A DNA stretch of 33,234 bases, taken from an archaeon (GTDB taxonomy: Archaea; Nanobdellota; Nanobdellia; Pacearchaeales; GW2011-AR1). Below are positions 2,616-16,112 of this stretch, in pieces (within the stretch, counting starts at the first letter, position 1; every line of letters begins with the position of its first letter). The position numbers and the translations under genes are program-made. Where the stretch lies: the NCBI GenBank assembly GCA_039796495.1, contig JBDKJQ010000066.1:1-33234 (forward strand), read 5' to 3'. The notes below the pieces were generated by a model that was not told the DNA's origin, searched no databases, and was given only the letters and a program-made list of their open reading frames with translations.

Positions 2616-3545
2616 TCATTTTCTTTTTCCAAACCACTCCCACATTTTCCTTAATCCCTCCTCAAGAGATGTTGTAGGATTCCAGTCAAGTTCTTTGCGT
2701 GCAAGAGAAGTATCAAGCACAATATCTCGAACCTCTCCTTTGATGGCTTCATCATGCTTAAACAGTATCTCTCGCTCTGAAATTTTTTTGAGCAATTCAC
2801 ACACCTCATTCACTGAAACCTGTTTTCCATTCGCAAGATGAAAGAGTTGATGTTCAGTTTTTCCTAACTTCTGCAAACAAGCAACAATAAAATCAGCAAT
2901 ATCTTCAACATAAATAAAATCCCGTGTCTGATTGCCGTCACCAAAAATGATCGGCGTTTCTCCCTTCATAATTTGAGAAATAAAAAATGGAACAAGCCGG
3001 CCTGATTTAGCAAGATCGCGTGGACCATATACATTCCCAAAACAAAAAATAAAATAATCCATACCATGCAGGCGAGAATACATTTCAACATAATGCTCTG
3101 CCGTATGTTTTGAAATGCCATAGGGCGATAAAGGACGAAGAGGATGTTTTTCATCAACCGGGAGATAATCAGGTTCACCAACACGTGCGCCACCAGTCGA
3201 GGTATAAATTATATTTTTCACATTATTTTTTCTACATGCCTCTAAAACAGAAATAGTGCCAAGAATATTCACCCGTGCATCTTCCACAGGGTTTTCAATT
3301 GATTTCCGAAGCAATGAATTTGCCGCGCAATGAATCACAAGTTCTGGTTTTTCCTCCAAAAAAATTTCATTCAATTTTTCTTCATCGCAAATATCTGCAT
3401 GATAATAAATTGCCCTTGCATTTTCATTCTCCTTTTTTCCCAACGAATAATAGTCAACAACAGAAACGCTCTCTCCTCGCTCAATAAGTTTGTCAACAAT
3501 CCAGCTGCCGATAAATCCTGCGCCACCCGTCACTAAAATTTTCAT
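2616..3545 (-). CDS. NAD-dependent epimerase/dehydratase (UDP-glucose 4-epimerase-like SDR)
   Basis: N-terminal Rossmann motif VTGGAGFIGSWIV, catalytic YxxxK (YGISKHTAE), and an extended-SDR length of 309 aa. Confidence 0.9.
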   Translation of the reverse strand: MKILVTGGAGFIGSWIVDKLIERGESVSVVDYYSLGKKENENARAIYYHADICDEEKLNEIFLEEKPELVIHCAANSLLRKSIENPVEDARVNILGTISVLEACRKNNVKNIIYTSTGGARVGEPDYLPVDEKHPLRPLSPYGISKHTAEHYVEMYSRLHGMDYFIFCFGNVYGPRDLAKSGRLVPFFISQIMKGETPIIFGDGNQTRDFIYVEDIADFIVACLQKLGKTEHQLFHLANGKQVSVNEVCELLKKISEREILFKHDEAIKGEVRDIVLDTSLARKELDWNPTTSLEEGLRKMWEWFGKRK

Positions 3546-3759
3546 AGGTAAAAAACAGAAAAATAGTTTTAATAGTTTTGTGTGATAGAAATGTATCGCC
3601 GAGACCCCAGACTCAAATTAGGAAATAATTTTTGGACACGATAACCCTGAGGCTTTTTTATTTTCTGAATATAAAAATTTGCTAAATATTGAATAGCTGC
3701 GGGGAGAAGACAGTACAGCTAATAATAGTATAATTATCAAGTAGCAACAAATAGAAATA

Positions 3760-3767
3760 TTTATAAA
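3760..3767 (+). promoter_or_regulatory. TATA-like box (TTTATAAA) for the DGR target gene
   Basis: Centred about 25 nt upstream of the ATG at 3789, consistent with a leaderless or near-leaderless archaeal mRNA. Confidence 0.5.
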
Positions 3768-3788: not shown

Positions 3789-4640
3789 ATGACATTAGAC
3801 CTAAATGAAGTTCAAGCGTATAGAGATTTTCGTACTGACGAGACTCCAAGATATATAGATCAGATGCCGCTGTTGCTTTCTGGAAAAAATCTCGATGGAA
3901 ACGTTATTGATGTTCCGCGCATTCCGGTGCAGGTTGCTCATATTTTTGAGCGAAGAATTCATTCTCAAAAGCCTGATTGGATGAACAATTGGTTTGATAC
4001 GGTAGATGGTATTGTTCTTCCTGCGAAAGGCGCATATGCAGAAGGAAAGTTTAAGATACGAAAGAATTCTGATTCGTTACGGGCAGTTACTCCTGCAAGT
4101 GCTGACACGCTCATCAAGGGTGGAATTGTTCATGATTCTTACGAAACAGTTCACGGTGTTGAGTTTATTGTAGATAAGGATATAATTGTAAATAGAGATA
4201 TGACTAAGGACGAGGCATTGAATAATCCTGCCTTGCTTGAAGTTCTTGGCGGAGATGGAAGTTTTAGGGATGCTGTCGTAGATAAAATATTTTATGAAGG
4301 TAAAAAGCAATTTAATTATGATACAATGATGGGAATATATCTACCATCGCAGTTAAAACAAGCACATGAACGGGCGTTCGTCGTCGACGGGCTTGACAAT
4401 TGGTCAGGGCTGGGGGGCAGGGACGATCTCCATGGCGGCTTTGGTCGTTTGGTCGGGTATAGAGCGCCGGAGGCGCCTTGTTTGAAATCCAGTGAAGCTG
4501 GCGCAAAAAATTTTGCAAAAGAAATAACCGTGCGTACATTGTTAGAAGAAACAAACCAAACATCTGCATATGCTCCTGATCAAATAACAAAATTACAGAA
4601 TATTCTTGAACAAAAAGGATACACTCTTTCACGAAAATAG
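3789..4640 (+). CDS. DGR variable (target) protein; the C-terminal region contains the VR
   Basis: 283-aa ORF. Codons for ...RAFVVDGLDNWSGLGGRDDLHGGFGRLVGY... (4371..4460) correspond to the VR. The G-x-R-L-V ending resembles the conserved end of C-type-lectin/FGE-like DGR variable domains. No N-terminal signal peptide or TM segment is visible. Confidence 0.85.
   Translation: MTLDLNEVQAYRDFRTDETPRYIDQMPLLLSGKNLDGNVIDVPRIPVQVAHIFERRIHSQKPDWMNNWFDTVDGIVLPAKGAYAEGKFKIRKNSDSLRAVTPASADTLIKGGIVHDSYETVHGVEFIVDKDIIVNRDMTKDEALNNPALLEVLGGDGSFRDAVVDKIFYEGKKQFNYDTMMGIYLPSQLKQAHERAFVVDGLDNWSGLGGRDDLHGGFGRLVGYRAPEAPCLKSSEAGAKNFAKEITVRTLLEETNQTSAYAPDQITKLQNILEQKGYTLSRK
4372..4459 (+). repeat. DGR variable repeat (VR)
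   Basis: 88 nt, 73/88 identical to 4814..4901 at a constant offset of +442. All 15 mismatches lie opposite adenines in the downstream copy. Confidence 0.9.
4464..4476 (+). promoter_or_regulatory. GC-rich hairpin just 3' of the VR (GCGCC-GGA-GGCGC), candidate DGR target-recognition element
   Basis: Perfect 5-bp G/C stem with a 3-nt loop, starting 5 nt after the end of VR/TR homology. It is absent after the TR. The position matches the hairpin/cruciform elements described downstream of VRs in characterised DGRs. Confidence 0.5.
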
Positions 4641-4646
4641 ATAGCT

Positions 4647-4654
4647 TTTTAAAA
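4647..4654 (+). promoter_or_regulatory. Candidate TATA box (TTTTAAAA) for the TR-RT transcript
   Basis: A/T box immediately after the target-gene stop codon. No other TATA-like element sits at canonical spacing from the RT ATG. Confidence 0.35.
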
Positions 4655-4813
4655 TTCTATAGATAATTTTATTTGTCCTAGCTAACTGTGCAACAAGGAT
4701 GCATGGGGCAGACTAGGCTACATGCTGTTTTGCTACGGCTTTACGAGTCATAAAATACAGCTTCAACAGCTATGAAGAAGCAGTGCGTTGGAAAAAGGCA
4801 GAACAGCTACTCT

Positions 4814-4901
4814 GGGCGTTCATCGTCAACAGGCTTGACAATAGGTCAAGGCTGGAGGGCAGGAACAATCTCCATAACGACAATGGTCGTTTGGTCGAAT
4901 A
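4814..4901 (+). repeat. DGR template repeat (TR)
   Basis: Non-coding copy of the VR that ends 21 nt upstream of the RT ATG. It has 25 adenines; 15 of them differ in the VR (12 A->G, 3 A->T). Read in the VR frame it contains six AAC/AAT codons. Confidence 0.9.
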
Positions 4902-4922
4902 GAATAGTCTGCCGTTAGGATT

Positions 4923-5465
4923 ATGATGTATGAAAAATTATGCTCGCATGAAAATCTTTTAACAGCATTTGAAAAATCAAGCAAAGGAAAAACAAAAAAG
5001 CCCTATGTTATTGCATTTAAGAAAAAACTTAAGGAAAATTTGCTTAAACTTCAAGAAGAATTGAGAAACCAAACTTACAAGCCACGGCCCCTTAAAACGT
5101 TCATTGTAAGTGAGCCAAAAACGAGAAAAATATCAAAATCTAAATATCGAGACAGAGTCATTCATCATGCTTTAATAAATATCATCAGACCTGTTTTTGA
5201 GCCAACATTTATTTATGATTCATTTGCTAATCAAGTTGGTAAAGGCACGCTGAAAGCTATTAACAGATTTCATTACTTTAAACGAAAAGTTTCAAGAAAC
5301 AATACAATTCCTTGCTATATTCTAAAAGCAGATATTAAACATTATTTTCAAGAGATAAATCACGAAATTTTACTAAAAATTTTAAAAGAAAAGATATCTG
5401 ACGAAAGAGTCATCATGCTTATCAAACAAATTTTATCCAATTCGTCCTCTGATGGGGGGGGGTGA
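4923..5465 (+). CDS. DGR reverse transcriptase, N-terminal segment (frame 0, ends at TGA after the G9 tract)
   Basis: RT fingers motifs: PRPLKTFIVSEPKTRKIS, YRDRVIHHAL, ILKADIKHYFQEINHE (catalytic Asp, motif 3/A). Confidence 0.85.
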   Translation: MMYEKLCSHENLLTAFEKSSKGKTKKPYVIAFKKKLKENLLKLQEELRNQTYKPRPLKTFIVSEPKTRKISKSKYRDRVIHHALINIIRPVFEPTFIYDSFANQVGKGTLKAINRFHYFKRKVSRNNTIPCYILKADIKHYFQEINHEILLKILKEKISDERVIMLIKQILSNSSSDGGG

Positions 5466-6342
5466 ATGCCTTCGAGGAATGCCTCTGGGAAACTATACCT
5501 CACAATGGTTTGCTAATATTTATCTTGGCAAGTTGGACAAATTTGTAAAACATTATCTGAGAGCAAAATATTACATTCGTTATGTGGATGATTTTGTCAT
5601 TTTTTCTTATTCAAAAATAGAATTGGAGCAATGGAAAAATGAGATTAGTCAATTTTTAGAAAAAGAACTTTTGCTTTCGCTTCATCCTGATAAATCTCGG
5701 ATAATACCATTAAATAAAGGCATTCATTTTTTAGGATTAAGAATTTTTTATTATCACTCATTAATCAGAGAGAGTAACAAAAGAAATTTTGAACGCAGAT
5801 TCAAAGAGTTGAAAATTTTGTATAGAGAAGATAGGATACCTAGAGAAAAGGTGGTCGAAAGTCTCGAGGGCTGGCTTACTTTTGCAAAACATGCAAATTC
5901 TTACAAATATTGCAGAGAATTATTGAGAAATTTTAACAAAAGCTTTCCAATAAGGCATAAGAATGAAATAATAAGGACAAAGAAAATAAAAAACTTTTTT
6001 AGAAAAGTATATGCAAGTAAGGTAGACTTCAGTTTGCAAAAAACATTATTTTTATTTCATAAAAAATTAACTTATGAGCAAATTGCCGATAAGCGTTCTA
6101 TCAAACAGGGAACTGTTTGGAAACATTTTTCTGATTTAATTGAGTATGGGCAGCTTTCAGTGTGGAGTGTAGTAGCAAAGAGGAAGATAATCAGAGTACT
6201 GTCGAAAATAAAAAATGTTCAGGAGCCGCTTAAGCAGATAAAGGAAAGGATACATGATAAAACTATTTCTTATGATGAAATTAATTGTGTAAAATCTCAC
6301 TTAAAAATGAAAGATAAAATTAAAAATATAGTCAAGAGTTAA
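5452..6342 (+). CDS. DGR reverse transcriptase, C-terminal segment (+1 frame) with C-terminal HTH-like extension
   Basis: Motif 4 LGNYTSQWFANIYL (DGR-typical SQxFAN, 5500..5517), catalytic YVDD (5581..5592), LHPDKS, GIHFLGLRI. The C-terminal ~90 aa (6043..6303) look like a helix-turn-helix domain. The ATG at 5452 is probably not a real start. Confidence 0.85.
   Translation: MGGGECLRGMPLGNYTSQWFANIYLGKLDKFVKHYLRAKYYIRYVDDFVIFSYSKIELEQWKNEISQFLEKELLLSLHPDKSRIIPLNKGIHFLGLRIFYYHSLIRESNKRNFERRFKELKILYREDRIPREKVVESLEGWLTFAKHANSYKYCRELLRNFNKSFPIRHKNEIIRTKKIKNFFRKVYASKVDFSLQKTLFLFHKKLTYEQIADKRSIKQGTVWKHFSDLIEYGQLSVWSVVAKRKIIRVLSKIKNVQEPLKQIKERIHDKTISYDEINCVKSHLKMKDKIKNIVKS
5454..5462 (+). repeat. 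G9 homopolymer at the RT frameshift site
   Basis: gat ggg ggg ggg tga. Removing one G, or a +1 ribosomal slip, joins 4923..5465 to the 5452..6342 frame and gives one RT of about 472 aa. Confidence 0.95.
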
Positions 6343-7621
6343 ACTCTACCCCCAACCGCTCATTCATCTCGCCATTGACATTTTCAAGCATTTTCAGTTT
6401 TGTTGCAACAGTGCCGCGCCATTCCTTGTGCCCGAGTACCCATCCAAGCTTGACAAGCGCAGTTTCAGGCAGCATATCGTTGAGGAAAACAACGCCGATG
6501 TCTTGCAATTTTCTTCCCGTTGTATATACAAAAGGATCCACTCTTCCAAAAATAGTTTGCGTGGTCATATATACGAGTAATCCCGAAGTGATCGCAATCT
6601 TCAAGGAAGGAACTAAATTATATTTTCCCTCGCACGCAACATGGCCAAAACCAGTGCCCTCAATAACAAGACCTTTACAATTTTTTCTGTAATAATCAAT
6701 AGCTGCAGGGATGATTCCGGGATGTATTTTCAGCAGGCTCACTTTTTCGTCGAACACAGCATCAATAACAACTTTATTTTTATTTCTTTTATTAAAATCA
6801 TTTCTTAGTAATTCGATTTTTCCGTTCGGAAAAACTTTTGCAAACGGCGTGCTGTTAACCGCCTTGAACGCATCCCTTCGTGACGAATGCATTTTTCTGA
6901 CTTTATTTCCCTGTAATGCATAACAAAAATCATCGTGTATAGTTGCATGTCCAACTAACATAACCTCTGCAATATCACTCAGCGCTGCATGCGCCGAACA
7001 AATCAAATTTAATCTGCTGTCGCTGCTCCCTCGATCGCTTGATCGTTGGGAATACGTCAATACAACAGGCTTGTTTAATTTCCCTAACATGAATGATAAA
7101 GCAGATCCGGTAAAATGTAAAGTATCAGTCCCATGAGTAATAATCACTCCTTTTACTTCAGGATTTTTTAATGATTTTCCCACCAATTTCGCTAGCTTCA
7201 TCCAGTCAGCTGGCATCATGTTTTCACTTAATTTCAAAAAAGGACTATGCACACGAATATCGGCAATCTCAAAAATTTCCGGGAAAAGTAAGAATAATTC
7301 TTTGGGGTCAATTAATCCCTTTACTCCTCCGGTCGTCGGGTCAAGCTTGCCGGAAATTGTTCCACCAGTAATAAATAGATCGATAATCGGCTTCTGTCCT
7401 GAATTTTTAAAATCTACATCTTTTTGCTTCACAACTCTTTTTTCAATCAACTTTATTTCACTCACATCTGATTTTTTAAAACCAATGTTGTACCCATTCT
7501 CCAATTTTAATAAAATAACACTAGGATCATAACTATCAAGAAGAATTCCTCGTTGAGGTTTTCTGTTGACAATCAATTCTACTTTGTCTCCCGCTTCTAG
7601 TTTCTTGAATGGCTTCTTCAT
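6332..7621 (-). CDS. gatD: Glu-tRNA(Gln) amidotransferase subunit D (GatD, asparaginase-like)
   Basis: 429 aa. Asparaginase motifs ITGGTISGKLD and ITHGTDTLHFTGSALSF. N-terminal GatD-specific domain. The 3' end overlaps the convergent RT stop by 11 nt. Confidence 0.9.
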   Translation of the reverse strand: MKKPFKKLEAGDKVELIVNRKPQRGILLDSYDPSVILLKLENGYNIGFKKSDVSEIKLIEKRVVKQKDVDFKNSGQKPIIDLFITGGTISGKLDPTTGGVKGLIDPKELFLLFPEIFEIADIRVHSPFLKLSENMMPADWMKLAKLVGKSLKNPEVKGVIITHGTDTLHFTGSALSFMLGKLNKPVVLTYSQRSSDRGSSDSRLNLICSAHAALSDIAEVMLVGHATIHDDFCYALQGNKVRKMHSSRRDAFKAVNSTPFAKVFPNGKIELLRNDFNKRNKNKVVIDAVFDEKVSLLKIHPGIIPAAIDYYRKNCKGLVIEGTGFGHVACEGKYNLVPSLKIAITSGLLVYMTTQTIFGRVDPFVYTTGRKLQDIGVVFLNDMLPETALVKLGWVLGHKEWRGTVATKLKMLENVNGEMNERLGVEFNS

Positions 7622-11994: not shown

Positions 11995-14427
11995 ATGAAA
12001 AAATTTGACGTTGTCGGTATTGGCAGTGCATTGCTTGATATTGTATATACTGTTCCTGACCAAGTGTTGCAAAAATTTGAGTTGCCAAAAGGAGGAATGA
12101 AACTCATTAGCAATAAGGAAAGCATACAACTTTTTGATGCACTCAAAGAACATGAGCCATCAGTAAATCCCGGAGGAAGTTGTTCAAATACCTTGGCAGG
12201 CATTTCGTGCTTAGGAAGCAAAACTGCATTCTTCGGAAAAATCGGCAATGATGAGCATGGTAACCTCTACGAATCAAAGACAATCCAAGCAGGTATTAAT
12301 TCATTTCTCTCGCGCCATGCAACACAGCTCACCGGCCACGCCATAACCTTCATAACTCCCGACGGTGAACGAACATTTGCAGTACATTTAGGAGCATCAG
12401 CTGATTTGCACTTAAATGATTTATCAAAAGATATAATCACGCAATCAAAAATACTGCATCTTGAAGGATATCAACTTGAAATCCCGCAGATACAAGAGGC
12501 AATCATACATATCATTACCAGTGCAAAAGAAAACGACGTTAAAATTTCGCTTGATCTTTCAGACGCAGGACTGGTACAAAGAAATCATCCCTTATTCCAG
12601 CAATTTGTCAAAGAGCATGTTGATATTGTATTTGCAAATGAGGAAGAAGCAAAAAGTTTCACTGGTAAAAACCCAGAGCAGGCATTGCACGAGATAGCAC
12701 AGCATGTTGACACTGTGATAATCAAATTAGGAGAAAAAGGAAGTTTAATCAAATCAAAAAATACTATGCATACAATACCTTCTGAAAAAACAACCGTTGT
12801 GAACACTAACGGCGCAGGCGACATGTATGCAGCAGCAATATTGCATAGCCTGGTGCAAAATACGAGCCTGGAATCTGCAGGAAGACTGGCAAGTTTCAGC
12901 GCAGCATTGATTGTTAACAGCCAAGGCACGCGTTTAACACCTGAACACCTCACTAAAATAAAGCTTTTAAACCCTCAAAAACAACTACCAGCTATGAAAG
13001 AAGTGATTATTGTGCCACTCAAAAAAGCAGAGTATAAAGTCAAAGATATTTCTCTTGCAGAGTTTGGCAGAAAAGAGATTGAAATTGCTGAAAAAGAAAT
13101 GCCGGGATTAATAGCACTGCGAAAAAAATACGGTCCACTCAAACCATTGAATAAAATAAGAATTTCCGGAAGTCTGCACATGACTATTCAGACTGCAGTG
13201 CTGATTGAAACATTGCAGGAATTAGGGGCAGACGTGCGCTGGGCATCATGTAATATTTTTTCAACACAGGATCATGCAGCAGCAGCAATCGCGAAAGCAG
13301 GAATTCCCGTATTTGCATGGAAAGAAGAAAGTTTGAAAGAATATTGGGAATGTACAAAAAAAGCACTAGATTTCGGCGATGACGCAGGTCCACAATTGAT
13401 TGTCGACGATGGGGGAGACGCAACACTCATGATCCATAAGGGAATTGAAATTGAGAATAATCCAGCACTGTTAGAATTAGATTATTCCGATGAAGGTGAA
13501 GATTTCAGAGAATTAATGATATGCTTGAAACAAATGTATTATGAAGATAAGCAATTCTGGCATAAGAGAATTAGCGACATTCGCGGCGTATCAGAAGAAA
13601 CAACAACCGGTGTCCACCGATTATACCAGATGTTAGAAGAAAATAAATTATTATTTCCTGCAATTAATGTGAACGATTCAGTTACAAAATCAAAATTTGA
13701 TAATTTATATGGATGCAGAGAAAGTTTGGCTGACGGCATAAAACGCGCAACTGACGTGATGATTGCCGGAAAAACTGCAGTAGTCTGTGGGTATGGCGAC
13801 GTCGGAAAAGGATGCGCGCAAAGTATGCGAGGATTTGGAGCAAAAGTCATTGTCACAGAAATTGATCCCATTAATGCATTGCAAGCATCTATGGAAGGAT
13901 ATCCTGTTGAAATCATCGATGATGTGCTCGCAAAAGCAGACCTCTTCATCACCGCAACTGGAAATAAAGATATTCTTACACTCGAGCATATGATGAAGAT
14001 GAAAGATCAGGCCATTCTGTGCAACATCGGCCATTTTGATAATGAAATTCAAATCAGTAGACTCAACAAATATCCCGGCATAAAAAAAATAAATATTAAG
14101 CCACAAGTGGATAAATACGTATTTCCCGACGGGAGAGAAATCTATGTGCTGGCAGAAGGAAGATTAGTAAACCTTGGGTGTGCAACCGGCCATCCAAGTT
14201 TTGTCATGAGCAATTCATTCACCAACCAAGTCCTCGCACAAATTGACTTGTGGAGAAATAATTATGCAATCGGAGTCTATCGATTACCCAAGCGCCTCGA
14301 TGAAGAAGTTGCACGATTGCATCTGGAAAGAATCGGCGCAAAACTCACAAAACTCACGCCCGATCAGGCAAAATATATCGGCGTAAATCCCGATGGTCCG
14401 TATAAGCCTGAGCATTATAAGTACTGA
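11995..14427 (+). CDS. ahcY: Fusion protein: PfkB-family (adenosine/ribo)kinase + S-adenosyl-L-homocysteine hydrolase
   Basis: 810-aa uninterrupted ORF. The N-terminal ~330 aa carry PfkB motifs NPGGSCSNT and [12 protein letters not shown]. From about 13027 there is a full SAHH: [29 protein letters not shown] site [25 protein letters not shown]-like AAGAGGT precedes the ATG. Confidence 0.85.
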
Positions 14428-14840: not shown

Positions 14841-16112
14841 ATGCCAAAAATAGGTATCATCGGCGGAAGTGGATTAGACGATCCTCAACTTATCACAAAC
14901 TACCAGGAAAAATCCGTTGATACGCCCTATGGAAAACCAAGTTCTTCATTAACTGTCGGAAAAATCCAAGGCGTAGATGTGGTGATTCTCGCTCGGCACG
15001 GCAAACACCACGAAATATATCCGTCAAACATTAATTTCAGGGCAAATATTTCTGCGCTCAAGCAAGAGGGTTGCACACATATTATTGCTACCAGCGCCGT
15101 CGGATCATTAAAAGAAGAAATAAAGCCCGGAGACTTAGTCTTTCCGGATCAATTCATCGACTTCACAAAATTTAGGAAAAATACGTTTTTTGACAAATAT
15201 GGCGACGTGAAACACATAGGCATGGCAGAGCCTTTTTCCAAGGAACTCAGAAAATTATTAATTCAGGAAACAAAAAATCTGCAGTATAATTTTCACCAGA
15301 AAGCAACAATTGTTGTCATTGAAGGCCCTAGATTTTCAACCAAAGCAGAAAGTAATATGTTCAGAAATTTTGCTGACATCATCGGCATGACAACCTTTCC
15401 AGAAGTTGCATTGGCAAATGAATTGGAAATTCCGTATGCAAGCATCGCAATGTCAACCGATTATGATTGCTGGAAAGAGGGAGAAGAGCCCGTCACCTTT
15501 GAAATAGTGATGCAGCGCATGAAAGAGAATGCAGACAAGGTAAAAAAATTACTGGTAAGCGTTATTCCCAAACTTGCAGAAAATGATGAAGAATTTATAA
15601 AAAATAAAATCCGGACAATTCAGAATTTTCCAAAGCCGGGAATCATGTTTCGCGATATCACAACATTATTATTAGATCCTGAAGCGATGAAAAAAACAAT
15701 AAATATTTTTTACAATCGATACAAAGAAAACAAGATTGATGCAGTTGCAGGAATAGAATCGCGTGGATTTATCATCGCCGGCATTCTCGCAGATAAATTA
15801 AATAAAGGGATTATCCCAATTCGAAAAAAAGGAAAACTCCCGTATCAGACAGTAAGTCAGGAATATGATTTGGAATACGGCAAAGATCACATTGAGGTCC
15901 ACAGCGATGCAATTAAGCCGGGTGACCGTATTTTGCTCATCGACGATCTGATAGCAACGGGCGGAACCGCACAAGCTTCAGCACAATTAATAGAGAAACT
16001 AGGCGGAAAAATTGAGGAAATTGCGTTCATCATCGAACTTCCAGAGTTAAAGGGAAGGGAAAAATTAAAAGAGTGGCCGGTGTTTTCCGTTGTTCAATTT
16101 GAAGGCGAGTAG
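14841..16112 (+). CDS. Fusion protein: 5'-methylthioadenosine phosphorylase + adenine phosphoribosyltransferase
   Basis: 423-aa uninterrupted ORF. The N-terminal ~245 aa carry MTAP motifs [38 protein letters not shown]. The C-terminal ~175 aa carry APRT motifs [12 protein letters not shown] and the PRPP loop [13 protein letters not shown]. Confidence 0.85.

Follow-up and report, generated by a model that had tools for sequence, protein, structure and literature searches.

A probable cellular, Avd-less diversity-generating retroelement with a reverse transcriptase frame interrupted at a poly-G tract in a Pacearchaeota-like archaeon

The archaeal contig JBDKJQ010000066.1, analysed here over positions 1 to 33,234 (the window), carries between positions 3789 and 6342 a row of features that very probably make up a cellular diversity-generating retroelement (DGR) of the nanoarchaeal (DPANN) clade, without Avd, set among the housekeeping genes of a Pacearchaeota-like archaeon. 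All of these features lie on the plus strand. The row opens with the gene for the target, or variable, protein of 283 aa (3789..4640), in which the variable repeat (VR; 4372..4459) is internal and occupies codons 195-224 of the 283-codon open reading frame (ORF), in the 3' part of the gene. Beyond the stop codon come the structured 5' domain of the DGR RNA (4667..4815), the non-coding template repeat (TR; 4814..4901), the 3' closing strands of the same RNA (4905..4921) and a reverse transcriptase (RT) with its ATG at 4923, 21 nt past the end of the TR. The RT is read from two ORFs, one of 180 aa (4923..5465) and one of 296 aa (5452..6342).

The relation between the two repeats carries most of the argument. 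In a direct alignment VR and TR match without gaps at an offset of 442, with 73 identities in 88 positions, and the pair was also recovered by a separate repeat search of the window. All 15 mismatches fall on adenines of the TR (4822, 4828, 4831, 4843, 4849, 4856, 4864, 4867, 4876, 4877, 4880, 4882, 4883, 4898 and 4899), 12 of them being A>G and three A>T in the VR; 10 other TR adenines are unchanged, and none of the 63 non-adenine positions differs. The hypergeometric probability that 15 mismatches would all fall on 25 adenines among 88 bases is 1.0e-10. A first-pass annotation of this DNA had given the same coordinates, offset, identity and mismatch positions, and every number was reproduced exactly. 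As a control, the orthologous VRs of four other genomes showed 6-10 non-adenine differences from the window TR, against 0 for the VR of the window. This adenine-only pattern shows past retrohoming. The TR adenines are distributed as 11, 12 and 2 over the first, second and third codon positions (23 of 25 in the first two); read in the VR frame the TR contains six AAC/AAT codons, and no adenine substitution yields a stop within codons 195-223, which bears out the earlier description. The repertoire had been put at 4^25, a figure that has to be lowered: 22 mutable adenines remain, corresponding to 1.8e13 variants at the DNA level (about 4^22) and 9.4e11 (about 1e12) at the protein level. A second VR was not found in the 33-kb window.

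For comparison, 80 genomic loci with related RTs were collected (loci and contigs are designated here by L and a number). Across 37 TR/VR pairs, from L013-L092 and the window, the TR adenines gave 325 A>G, 170 A>T and 20 A>C changes, with 524 unchanged. Hence A>C is rare in the clade (20 of 515 substitutions), and the 12 G, three T and no C of the window are typical of it.

The 3' ends of the two repeats differ in a constant manner. A motif resembling the initiation of mutagenic homing (IMH) sequence, TCGGGT, lies at the 3' end of the VR (4453..4458, plus strand), and its IMH*-like counterpart in the TR is TCGAAT (4895-4900), a GG/AA difference in which the GG at 4456-4457 is fixed. All eight VRs of the target family show GG opposite the AA of the TR, as do about 35 of the 37 TR/VR pairs of the clade, and the GAATAG 3' end of the TR is kept across the RT clade. 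The A>G changes at 4898 and 4899 represent this fixed distinction between IMH and IMH*, and two of the 15 mismatches are therefore not diversification. Paul et al. (2015, PMC4372165) reported IMH TGGGGT against IMH* TGGAAT in nanoarchaeal DGRs, and also a hairpin with a GRA triloop inside the target gene. A hairpin or cruciform of this kind, GCGCC-GGA-GGCGC, was found in a DNA fold at 4464..4476 (plus strand), 4 nt past the VR and within the target ORF, where it encodes APEAP. Nearly all VRs of the clade are followed by a hairpin with a G-N-A or A-G-A triloop, and the stems covary (GCACC/GGTGC, GCGAC/GTCGC, GCATC/GATGC, GCGTC/GACGC, CTGGC/GCCAG and others), sometimes at the price of altered encoded residues. 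In the more distant target homologue of L093 (reverse strand, 3163-3762), the hairpin is GCATC-GGA-GATGC, with two compensatory changes, and ASEML replaces APEAP.

The RT is consistent with a DGR enzyme. Its N-terminal ORF covers RVT_1 positions 8-108 and ends in a TGA directly past a run of G residues; the C-terminal ORF covers RVT_1 positions 117-205, with GMPLGNYTSQWFANIYL and YVDD, followed by the thumb and an HTH_40 domain (PF14493, 1.7e-15) at about 6031-6291, the C-terminus of the RT. YVDD and the LGNYTSQWFANIYL motif, both named in the first-pass annotation together with the 21-nt spacing from the TR, are present, and motif 4 carries SQ (GMPLGNYTSQWFANIY). The closest solved structure to the intact RT is 8ub7_A (3e-40), ahead of group II intron RTs (1e-23) by a margin of 55 bits. 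We take 8ub7_A to be the Bordetella bRT because the catalytic numbering D138/D215/D216 matches; the searchable literature contains no mention of the PDB code 8UB7 itself. More than 3,900 homologues were detected, and the fusion of RVT_1 to HTH_40 was seen in 120 of the 120 matches listed, the named ones being mostly from Pace-, Woese- and Nanoarchaeota. Relatives include the RT of Nanoarchaeota SCGC AAA011-G17 (L077). The best NCBIfam model is the group II RT/maturase TIGR04416, at 168 bits against a cut-off of 300, and Rfam detected no group II intron or retron RNA in the window, where it found only RT-16 and one tRNA. Taken together, these matches suggest that the RT belongs to the DGR clade.

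The RNA motif RT-16 (Rfam RF03019) matches positions 4667..4815 with 65.8 bits, above the gathering score of 50, and its functional 5' end is probably at 4675. Of 19 related loci, 18 have the motif on the strand of the RT, and in each one with a mapped TR the motif stops where the TR starts. Weinberg et al. (2017, PMC5737381) connected RT-10 alone with a DGR and gave no assignment for RT-16; the present comparison identifies this orphan motif as the 5' domain of the template RNA of DPANN DGRs. The minimum free energy fold of 4668-4926 (-90.1 kcal/mol, z -5.5) contains two helices that join this domain to sequence just beyond the TR: 4675-4682 (GUCCUAGC) pairs with 4914-4921 (GUUAGGAU), and 4707-4715 (GGCAGACUA) pairs with 4905-4913 (UAGUCUGCC). 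Many of the partner sequences vary between loci, and duplexes between strands of the same locus are far stronger than cross-locus duplexes (17-18 loci; p ~5e-5 per helix). The local P1 stem of the Rfam model is supported as well (p 4e-4). As the closing helices compete with this stem, a conformational alternative is possible, and the RNA may switch between two states, one with the local P1 stem and one closed around the TR. Each strand of the RT-16 P1 stem has a covarying alternative partner just past the TR (4675-4717 with 4905-4921). The two covarying helices provide a concrete RNA model for DGRs that lack Avd.

The target protein has no match in Pfam or NCBIfam, and exact-protein look-ups with it and with the neighbouring epimerase returned none. 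An exhaustive search with hidden Markov models identified 917 cluster representatives of the target superfamily at E<=1e-3, 473 of them below 1e-10. A word-indexed search had returned 10 matches, and the tiny family that this implied was dismissed as a sensitivity artefact given the result of the exhaustive search. Among the homologues, the variable columns coincide with the TR codons that bear adenines. The protein ends in a tail of ~60 aa (4477..4640, plus strand) that contains a conserved ...TSAYAPDQI.KLQNILEQKGY... and has predicted helices at residues 248-254 and 263-276; homologues of as little as 33-38% overall identity keep this tail with strong conservation, and four others lack it. 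The AlphaFold (AF2) model of the target has a predicted local distance difference test score (pLDDT) of 61 and a predicted template modelling (TM) score of 0.58. In a Foldseek search with this model the sole significant PDB match was 5ioo_A, AvpA (E 1.9e-4, TM 0.36/0.46), a structure missed when PDB sequences were searched by profile. AvpA is the variable protein of a nanoarchaeal DGR and has a C-type-lectin fold (PDB 5IOO; Handa et al. 2016, PMC5006420), and its VR is likewise internal, with the hairpin in the 46-aa extension that comes after it. On the strength of the predicted model, the target appears to be AvpA-like, with a C-type-lectin fold.

Homologues of the target also occur away from DGR machinery. 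No TR, RT or RT-16 was found within the fetched flanks of the homologous target loci L001-L009. Target homologues with diversified-looking VRs, an IMH motif and a hairpin are encoded at L001:6001-6834, L004:5404-6126, L006:6001-6882 and L009:6001-6882. In L006-L008 a gene for a DDE transposase abuts the stop codon of the target, at the place where L097, with the same target subtype, has a DGR cassette. Comparison of window positions 3789-6342 with L097:1-2590 gave a nucleotide identity of ~50% in the first 190 target codons, 78-90% from the target tail through RT-16 and TR, and 67-88% in the RT. This uneven conservation suggests that a module of VR, tail, RNA and RT may be exchanged, or conserved, apart from the scaffold domain.

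The layout itself is not unusual. About 45 of the 80 related loci have a same-strand TR of 85-100 nt that ends 20-100 nt before the RT, with a VR 300-500 nt upstream; hence the architecture is standard for this RT clade. The architecture that the earlier annotation had thought worth characterising is thus not special, since members of the clade usually lack Avd and have the target, the structured RNA, the TR and the RT on the same strand. A TR-RT cassette without Avd is, moreover, a published and recognised DGR architecture.

By analogy with the DGR of Bordetella and the nanoarchaeal elements already published, the RNA intermediate, the priming and homing steps and the role of the target can be pictured as follows. 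A single transcript would run from the RT-16 domain through the TR of 88 nt into a short 3' segment; by pairing back onto the 5' domain, this segment would close the TR into a loop. The RT, with its RVT_1 domain fused to a C-terminal HTH_40, would copy the TR into cDNA and misincorporate opposite adenines; in this clade the resulting changes would be chiefly A>G and A>T, with A>C hardly ever produced. The cDNA would then replace the VR of the putative AvpA-like lectin-fold gene, targeted by the IMH-like TCGGGT and the downstream hairpin with its GGA triloop. In this manner 15 codons of the presumed ligand-binding face could be recoded, with ~1e12 possible proteins.

The first-pass annotation listed a complete DGR with a single RT gene. 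Neither part of this description holds for the window: the two RT ORFs, 4923-5465 and 5452-6342, overlap in different frames and are joined at a G9 homopolymer (5454..5462, plus strand) that shifts the RT frame by +1, and an intact enzyme of 471 aa was found only in a sibling contig with G8. The sibling, JGI contig L012, is 99.9% identical to the window over 5.7 kb. Removal of one G from the window sequence likewise produces a single RT ORF, of 472 aa. G9 recurs in a Logan contig assembled from SRR35185531, which matches the window at 100% identity. The frameshift is the sole lesion of the RT, as both halves keep all conserved motifs and contain no further stops. The tract is the only G/C run of at least 7 nt in the 33-kb window, which otherwise offers no comparable homopolymer beyond G6 runs at 4412 and 11752 and A/T runs of 9. 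It encodes a Gly loop immediately before motif 4, inserted with respect to bRT. As the RT is out of frame at G9, this haplotype would be OFF, unless the ninth G is an artefact of sequencing or slippage allows it to be bypassed, and the G8 sibling would be ON.

Similar tracts recur in related cassettes. The same RT loop contains G7-G12 in seven other RTs of 50-60% identity. The closest related DGR is L097 (JGI Ga0180007_10036051), whose target belongs to the same family as that of the window and whose RT, once repaired, is 74% identical. A G11 run at L097:1688-1698 shifts this RT by +1, G10 being the length that would keep the frame; the G11 of L099 is in frame. In L013, one of the seven, a scaffold gap, present as a run of N at L013:4540-4565, directly follows the G11 tract of the RT, a sign of the difficulty that such tracts cause in assembly. 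In the related loci, 577 kb in all, DGR cassettes contain 15 G/C runs of at least 8 nt and the remaining sequence two (p 6e-8). Runs of 8-13 nt occur at three sites of the cassette, namely in the RT loop ahead of motif 4, within the 20-35 nt that precede the RT start, and ~388 nt into the RT. Examples from L013-L092 are L015:1279-1287, L027:1724-1733, L047:802-811, L056:4531-4542, L066:4556-4564, L025:3983-3991, L031:2934-2943, L040:119-131, L041:3972-3981, L045:3974-3983, L085:3986-3996 and L092:967-974. The pattern fits a contingency switch and fits homopolymer-prone sequencing error equally well. Among the top-ranked literature matches, no paper treated DGRs together with homopolymer-based phase variation.

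Haplotypes were compared at the level of consensus contigs only. One and the same VR occurs in all three haplotypes compared (window, L012 and L101). The two contigs L012 and L101 belong to a single JGI sample, 3300043413, and share an unjoined overlap of 141 nt across the VR (4373-4513), in which they differ by a synonymous single-nucleotide polymorphism at 4499 and have the same VR; for this reason the break between the JGI contigs is attributed to ordinary strain variation. The idea that contigs end at the VR (4442 for Logan, 4373 for JGI) owing to VR microdiversity was dropped on this account. The Logan contig starts at 4442, directly past the last diversified site at 4441, for which microdiversity is only a suggestive reading. 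Cross-assembly between VR and TR was also rejected as the cause of the break, the longest exact run that they share being 14 nt. Because the VR is identical in three haplotypes, current activity is unproven, and the evidence on it is neutral to negative.

Several of these observations weigh against reading the locus as such a DGR. The RT is split in both the window and the Logan contig, and a full-length enzyme is impossible by standard decoding; its assignment to the DGR clade depends on best matches and shared architecture. No ORF lies between target and RT that could be Avd, and no match to the Avd family was found in the neighbours scanned. The target model is of moderate quality, with a pLDDT below 50 in the VR region, its TM-scores to AvpA are modest, and the profile search of PDB sequences gave no link to AvpA. 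Finally, three haplotypes that are at least 99.87% identical show no consensus-level diversification. The most radical alternative is that no DGR is present at all, the RT coming from a group II intron or retron and the repeat having arisen by chance or by duplication of a segment. The identity of the best NCBIfam model and the name "retron-type RT" borne by some database entries speak for it, although that model falls far below its cut-off. The 55-bit lead of bRT among PDB relatives, the lack of an Rfam hit to either class of RNA, the improbability of the adenine-only pattern (P 1e-10) and the presence of the IMH/IMH* motifs and the hairpin all contradict it, and we regard it as extremely improbable. 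The locus may, on the other hand, be a decaying relic, with an RT pseudogene, VR/TR differences that record past activity only, and a decay that is irreversible. This would explain the frameshifted RT and the VR shared by three haplotypes, and it is in line with the target homologues elsewhere that have no RT, TR or RT-16 nearby, one set of them with an insertion sequence element abutting the target. Against this speak the single lesion, with all RT motifs kept in both halves and no further stops, the lack of any non-adenine difference between TR and VR, the intact RT-16, IMH, hairpin and closing helices, and the sibling with an intact RT. Decay is accordingly judged unlikely.

A less drastic alternative concerns only the tract: the DGR may be ordinary and intact, with a true sequence of G8, the ninth G being an error of sequencing or assembly and nothing being switched. 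The G8 and intact RT of the 99.9%-identical JGI contig favour such an error, as do the error-prone nature of long G runs, the gap in L013 placed exactly at its G11 run, and the low coverage of related contigs (the names of L093 and L099 give cov 4-5); the window and the Logan contig may also stem from the same reads. Against this, G9 appears in both of these assemblies, and L097, from a different JGI sample, is also +1 out of frame at the same tract. Consensus indel errors at runs of 8-9 nt are, in addition, uncommon in short-read assemblies. We consider an error a serious possibility that nevertheless falls short of being probable. That the G9 tract is a real, reversible slipped-strand switch is about as plausible, or slightly more so, and is likewise proposed only tentatively. 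What likelihood is left by switch, error and decay falls to a tract that is decoded by transcriptional or ribosomal slippage. Generalised to the clade, the switch would mean that DPANN DGRs carry hypermutable G/C tracts at conserved sites of the cassette, with slippage in a dispensable Gly loop toggling the mutagenic RT on and off; this we advance as a conjecture that has somewhat more to be said against it than for it. If it is true, these hosts gate a costly mutator stochastically, by an on/off switch placed over a system of targeted hypermutation. The out-of-frame RT alleles and the recurrent G/C homopolymers of the cassettes should be of use to specialists, and the question of a switch can be tested from existing reads.

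The surroundings of the element are those of a cellular chromosome. Besides GatD, whose best named relatives are from Pacearchaeota (68-70% identity), the window encodes GatE, an epimerase, GAPDH, an rRNA methyltransferase, a PfkB-SAHH fusion, PolB, ProRS, deoxyhypusine synthase, CDC48 and similar proteins, and no integrase, transposase or phage gene was found in it. The earlier view of a chromosomal DGR of a DPANN-type archaeon, among housekeeping genes and without mobile-element genes, is therefore upheld. A gene of the GatB/GatE family (129-1562; GatB_N and GatB_Yqey domains, read as GatE) and the gene for GatD (6332-7621) lie on the same strand about 4.8 kb apart, and the DGR, the epimerase gene and an unannotated ORF of 313 aa (1599-2540) lie between them. 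Two metabolic genes of the window are fusions: a PfkB-family kinase joined to S-adenosylhomocysteine hydrolase (11995-14427, 810 aa), and a PNP/UDP phosphorylase joined to a phosphoribosyltransferase (14841-16112, 423 aa).

Comparison with known systems places the individual features in context. Poly-G tracts underlie contingency, or phase-variable, genes in Campylobacter (PMC8355987; PMC2831843). The RT tract resembles such bacterial homopolymeric-tract genes in its long coding G run, in the AT-rich genome, in the length-tolerant loop and in the occurrence of in-frame and out-of-frame alleles in close relatives. It differs in that the host is an archaeon, that the gene under control would be a mutagenic RT and that the length differences observed are those between contigs. 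With respect to Rfam RT-16, the window (above the gathering score) and 18 of 19 related loci match the model; in contrast to the model, the motif here directly abuts a TR, and the downstream partners of its stem strands lie outside the Rfam description.

The DGR of Bordetella phage BPP-1, with bRT, Avd and Mtd, shares the adenine-specific transfer from TR to VR, the logic of IMH and IMH*, and a hairpin past the VR. Its RT is the closest solved homologue (3e-40), with SQ in motif 4 and a YxDD, and in its ribonucleoprotein RNA upstream of the TR is paired with RNA downstream of it (the "cPRT Stop" duplex), as proposed here for the closing helices. However, the archaeal element has no Avd, and a 140-nt RT-16 RNA precedes the TR in place of the 3' end of avd. 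Its RT has an extra C-terminal HTH_40 and the Gly-loop insertion; its hairpin has a triloop instead of a GRNA tetraloop; it is cellular, whereas the BPP-1 element is borne by a phage; and A>C changes are rare.

The nearest parallels are the DGRs of Nanoarchaeota known from the DUSEL4 single-cell genomes (Paul et al. 2015, PMC4372165). The RT is of the same clade, with L077 of SCGC AAA011-G17 among its relatives; target, TR and RT lie on one strand; IMH and IMH* follow the scheme of xGGGT against xGAAT; the hairpin with its GRA triloop lies inside the target ORF; and the internal VR is followed by a helical extension of ~50-60 aa. The predicted model suggests a fold like that of AvpA (PMC5006420, 5IOO), and the repertoire, at 1e11-1e13 variants, is of the same order. 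The differences are a target without detectable sequence similarity to AvpA, a Pacearchaeota-like host, an IMH of TCGGGT instead of TGGGGT, and an RT that in this copy is frameshifted at a poly-G run. The element is hence another member of the already catalogued class of DGRs from DPANN and the Candidate Phyla Radiation (CPR), not surprising by itself, but well resolved and with a full set of cis elements.

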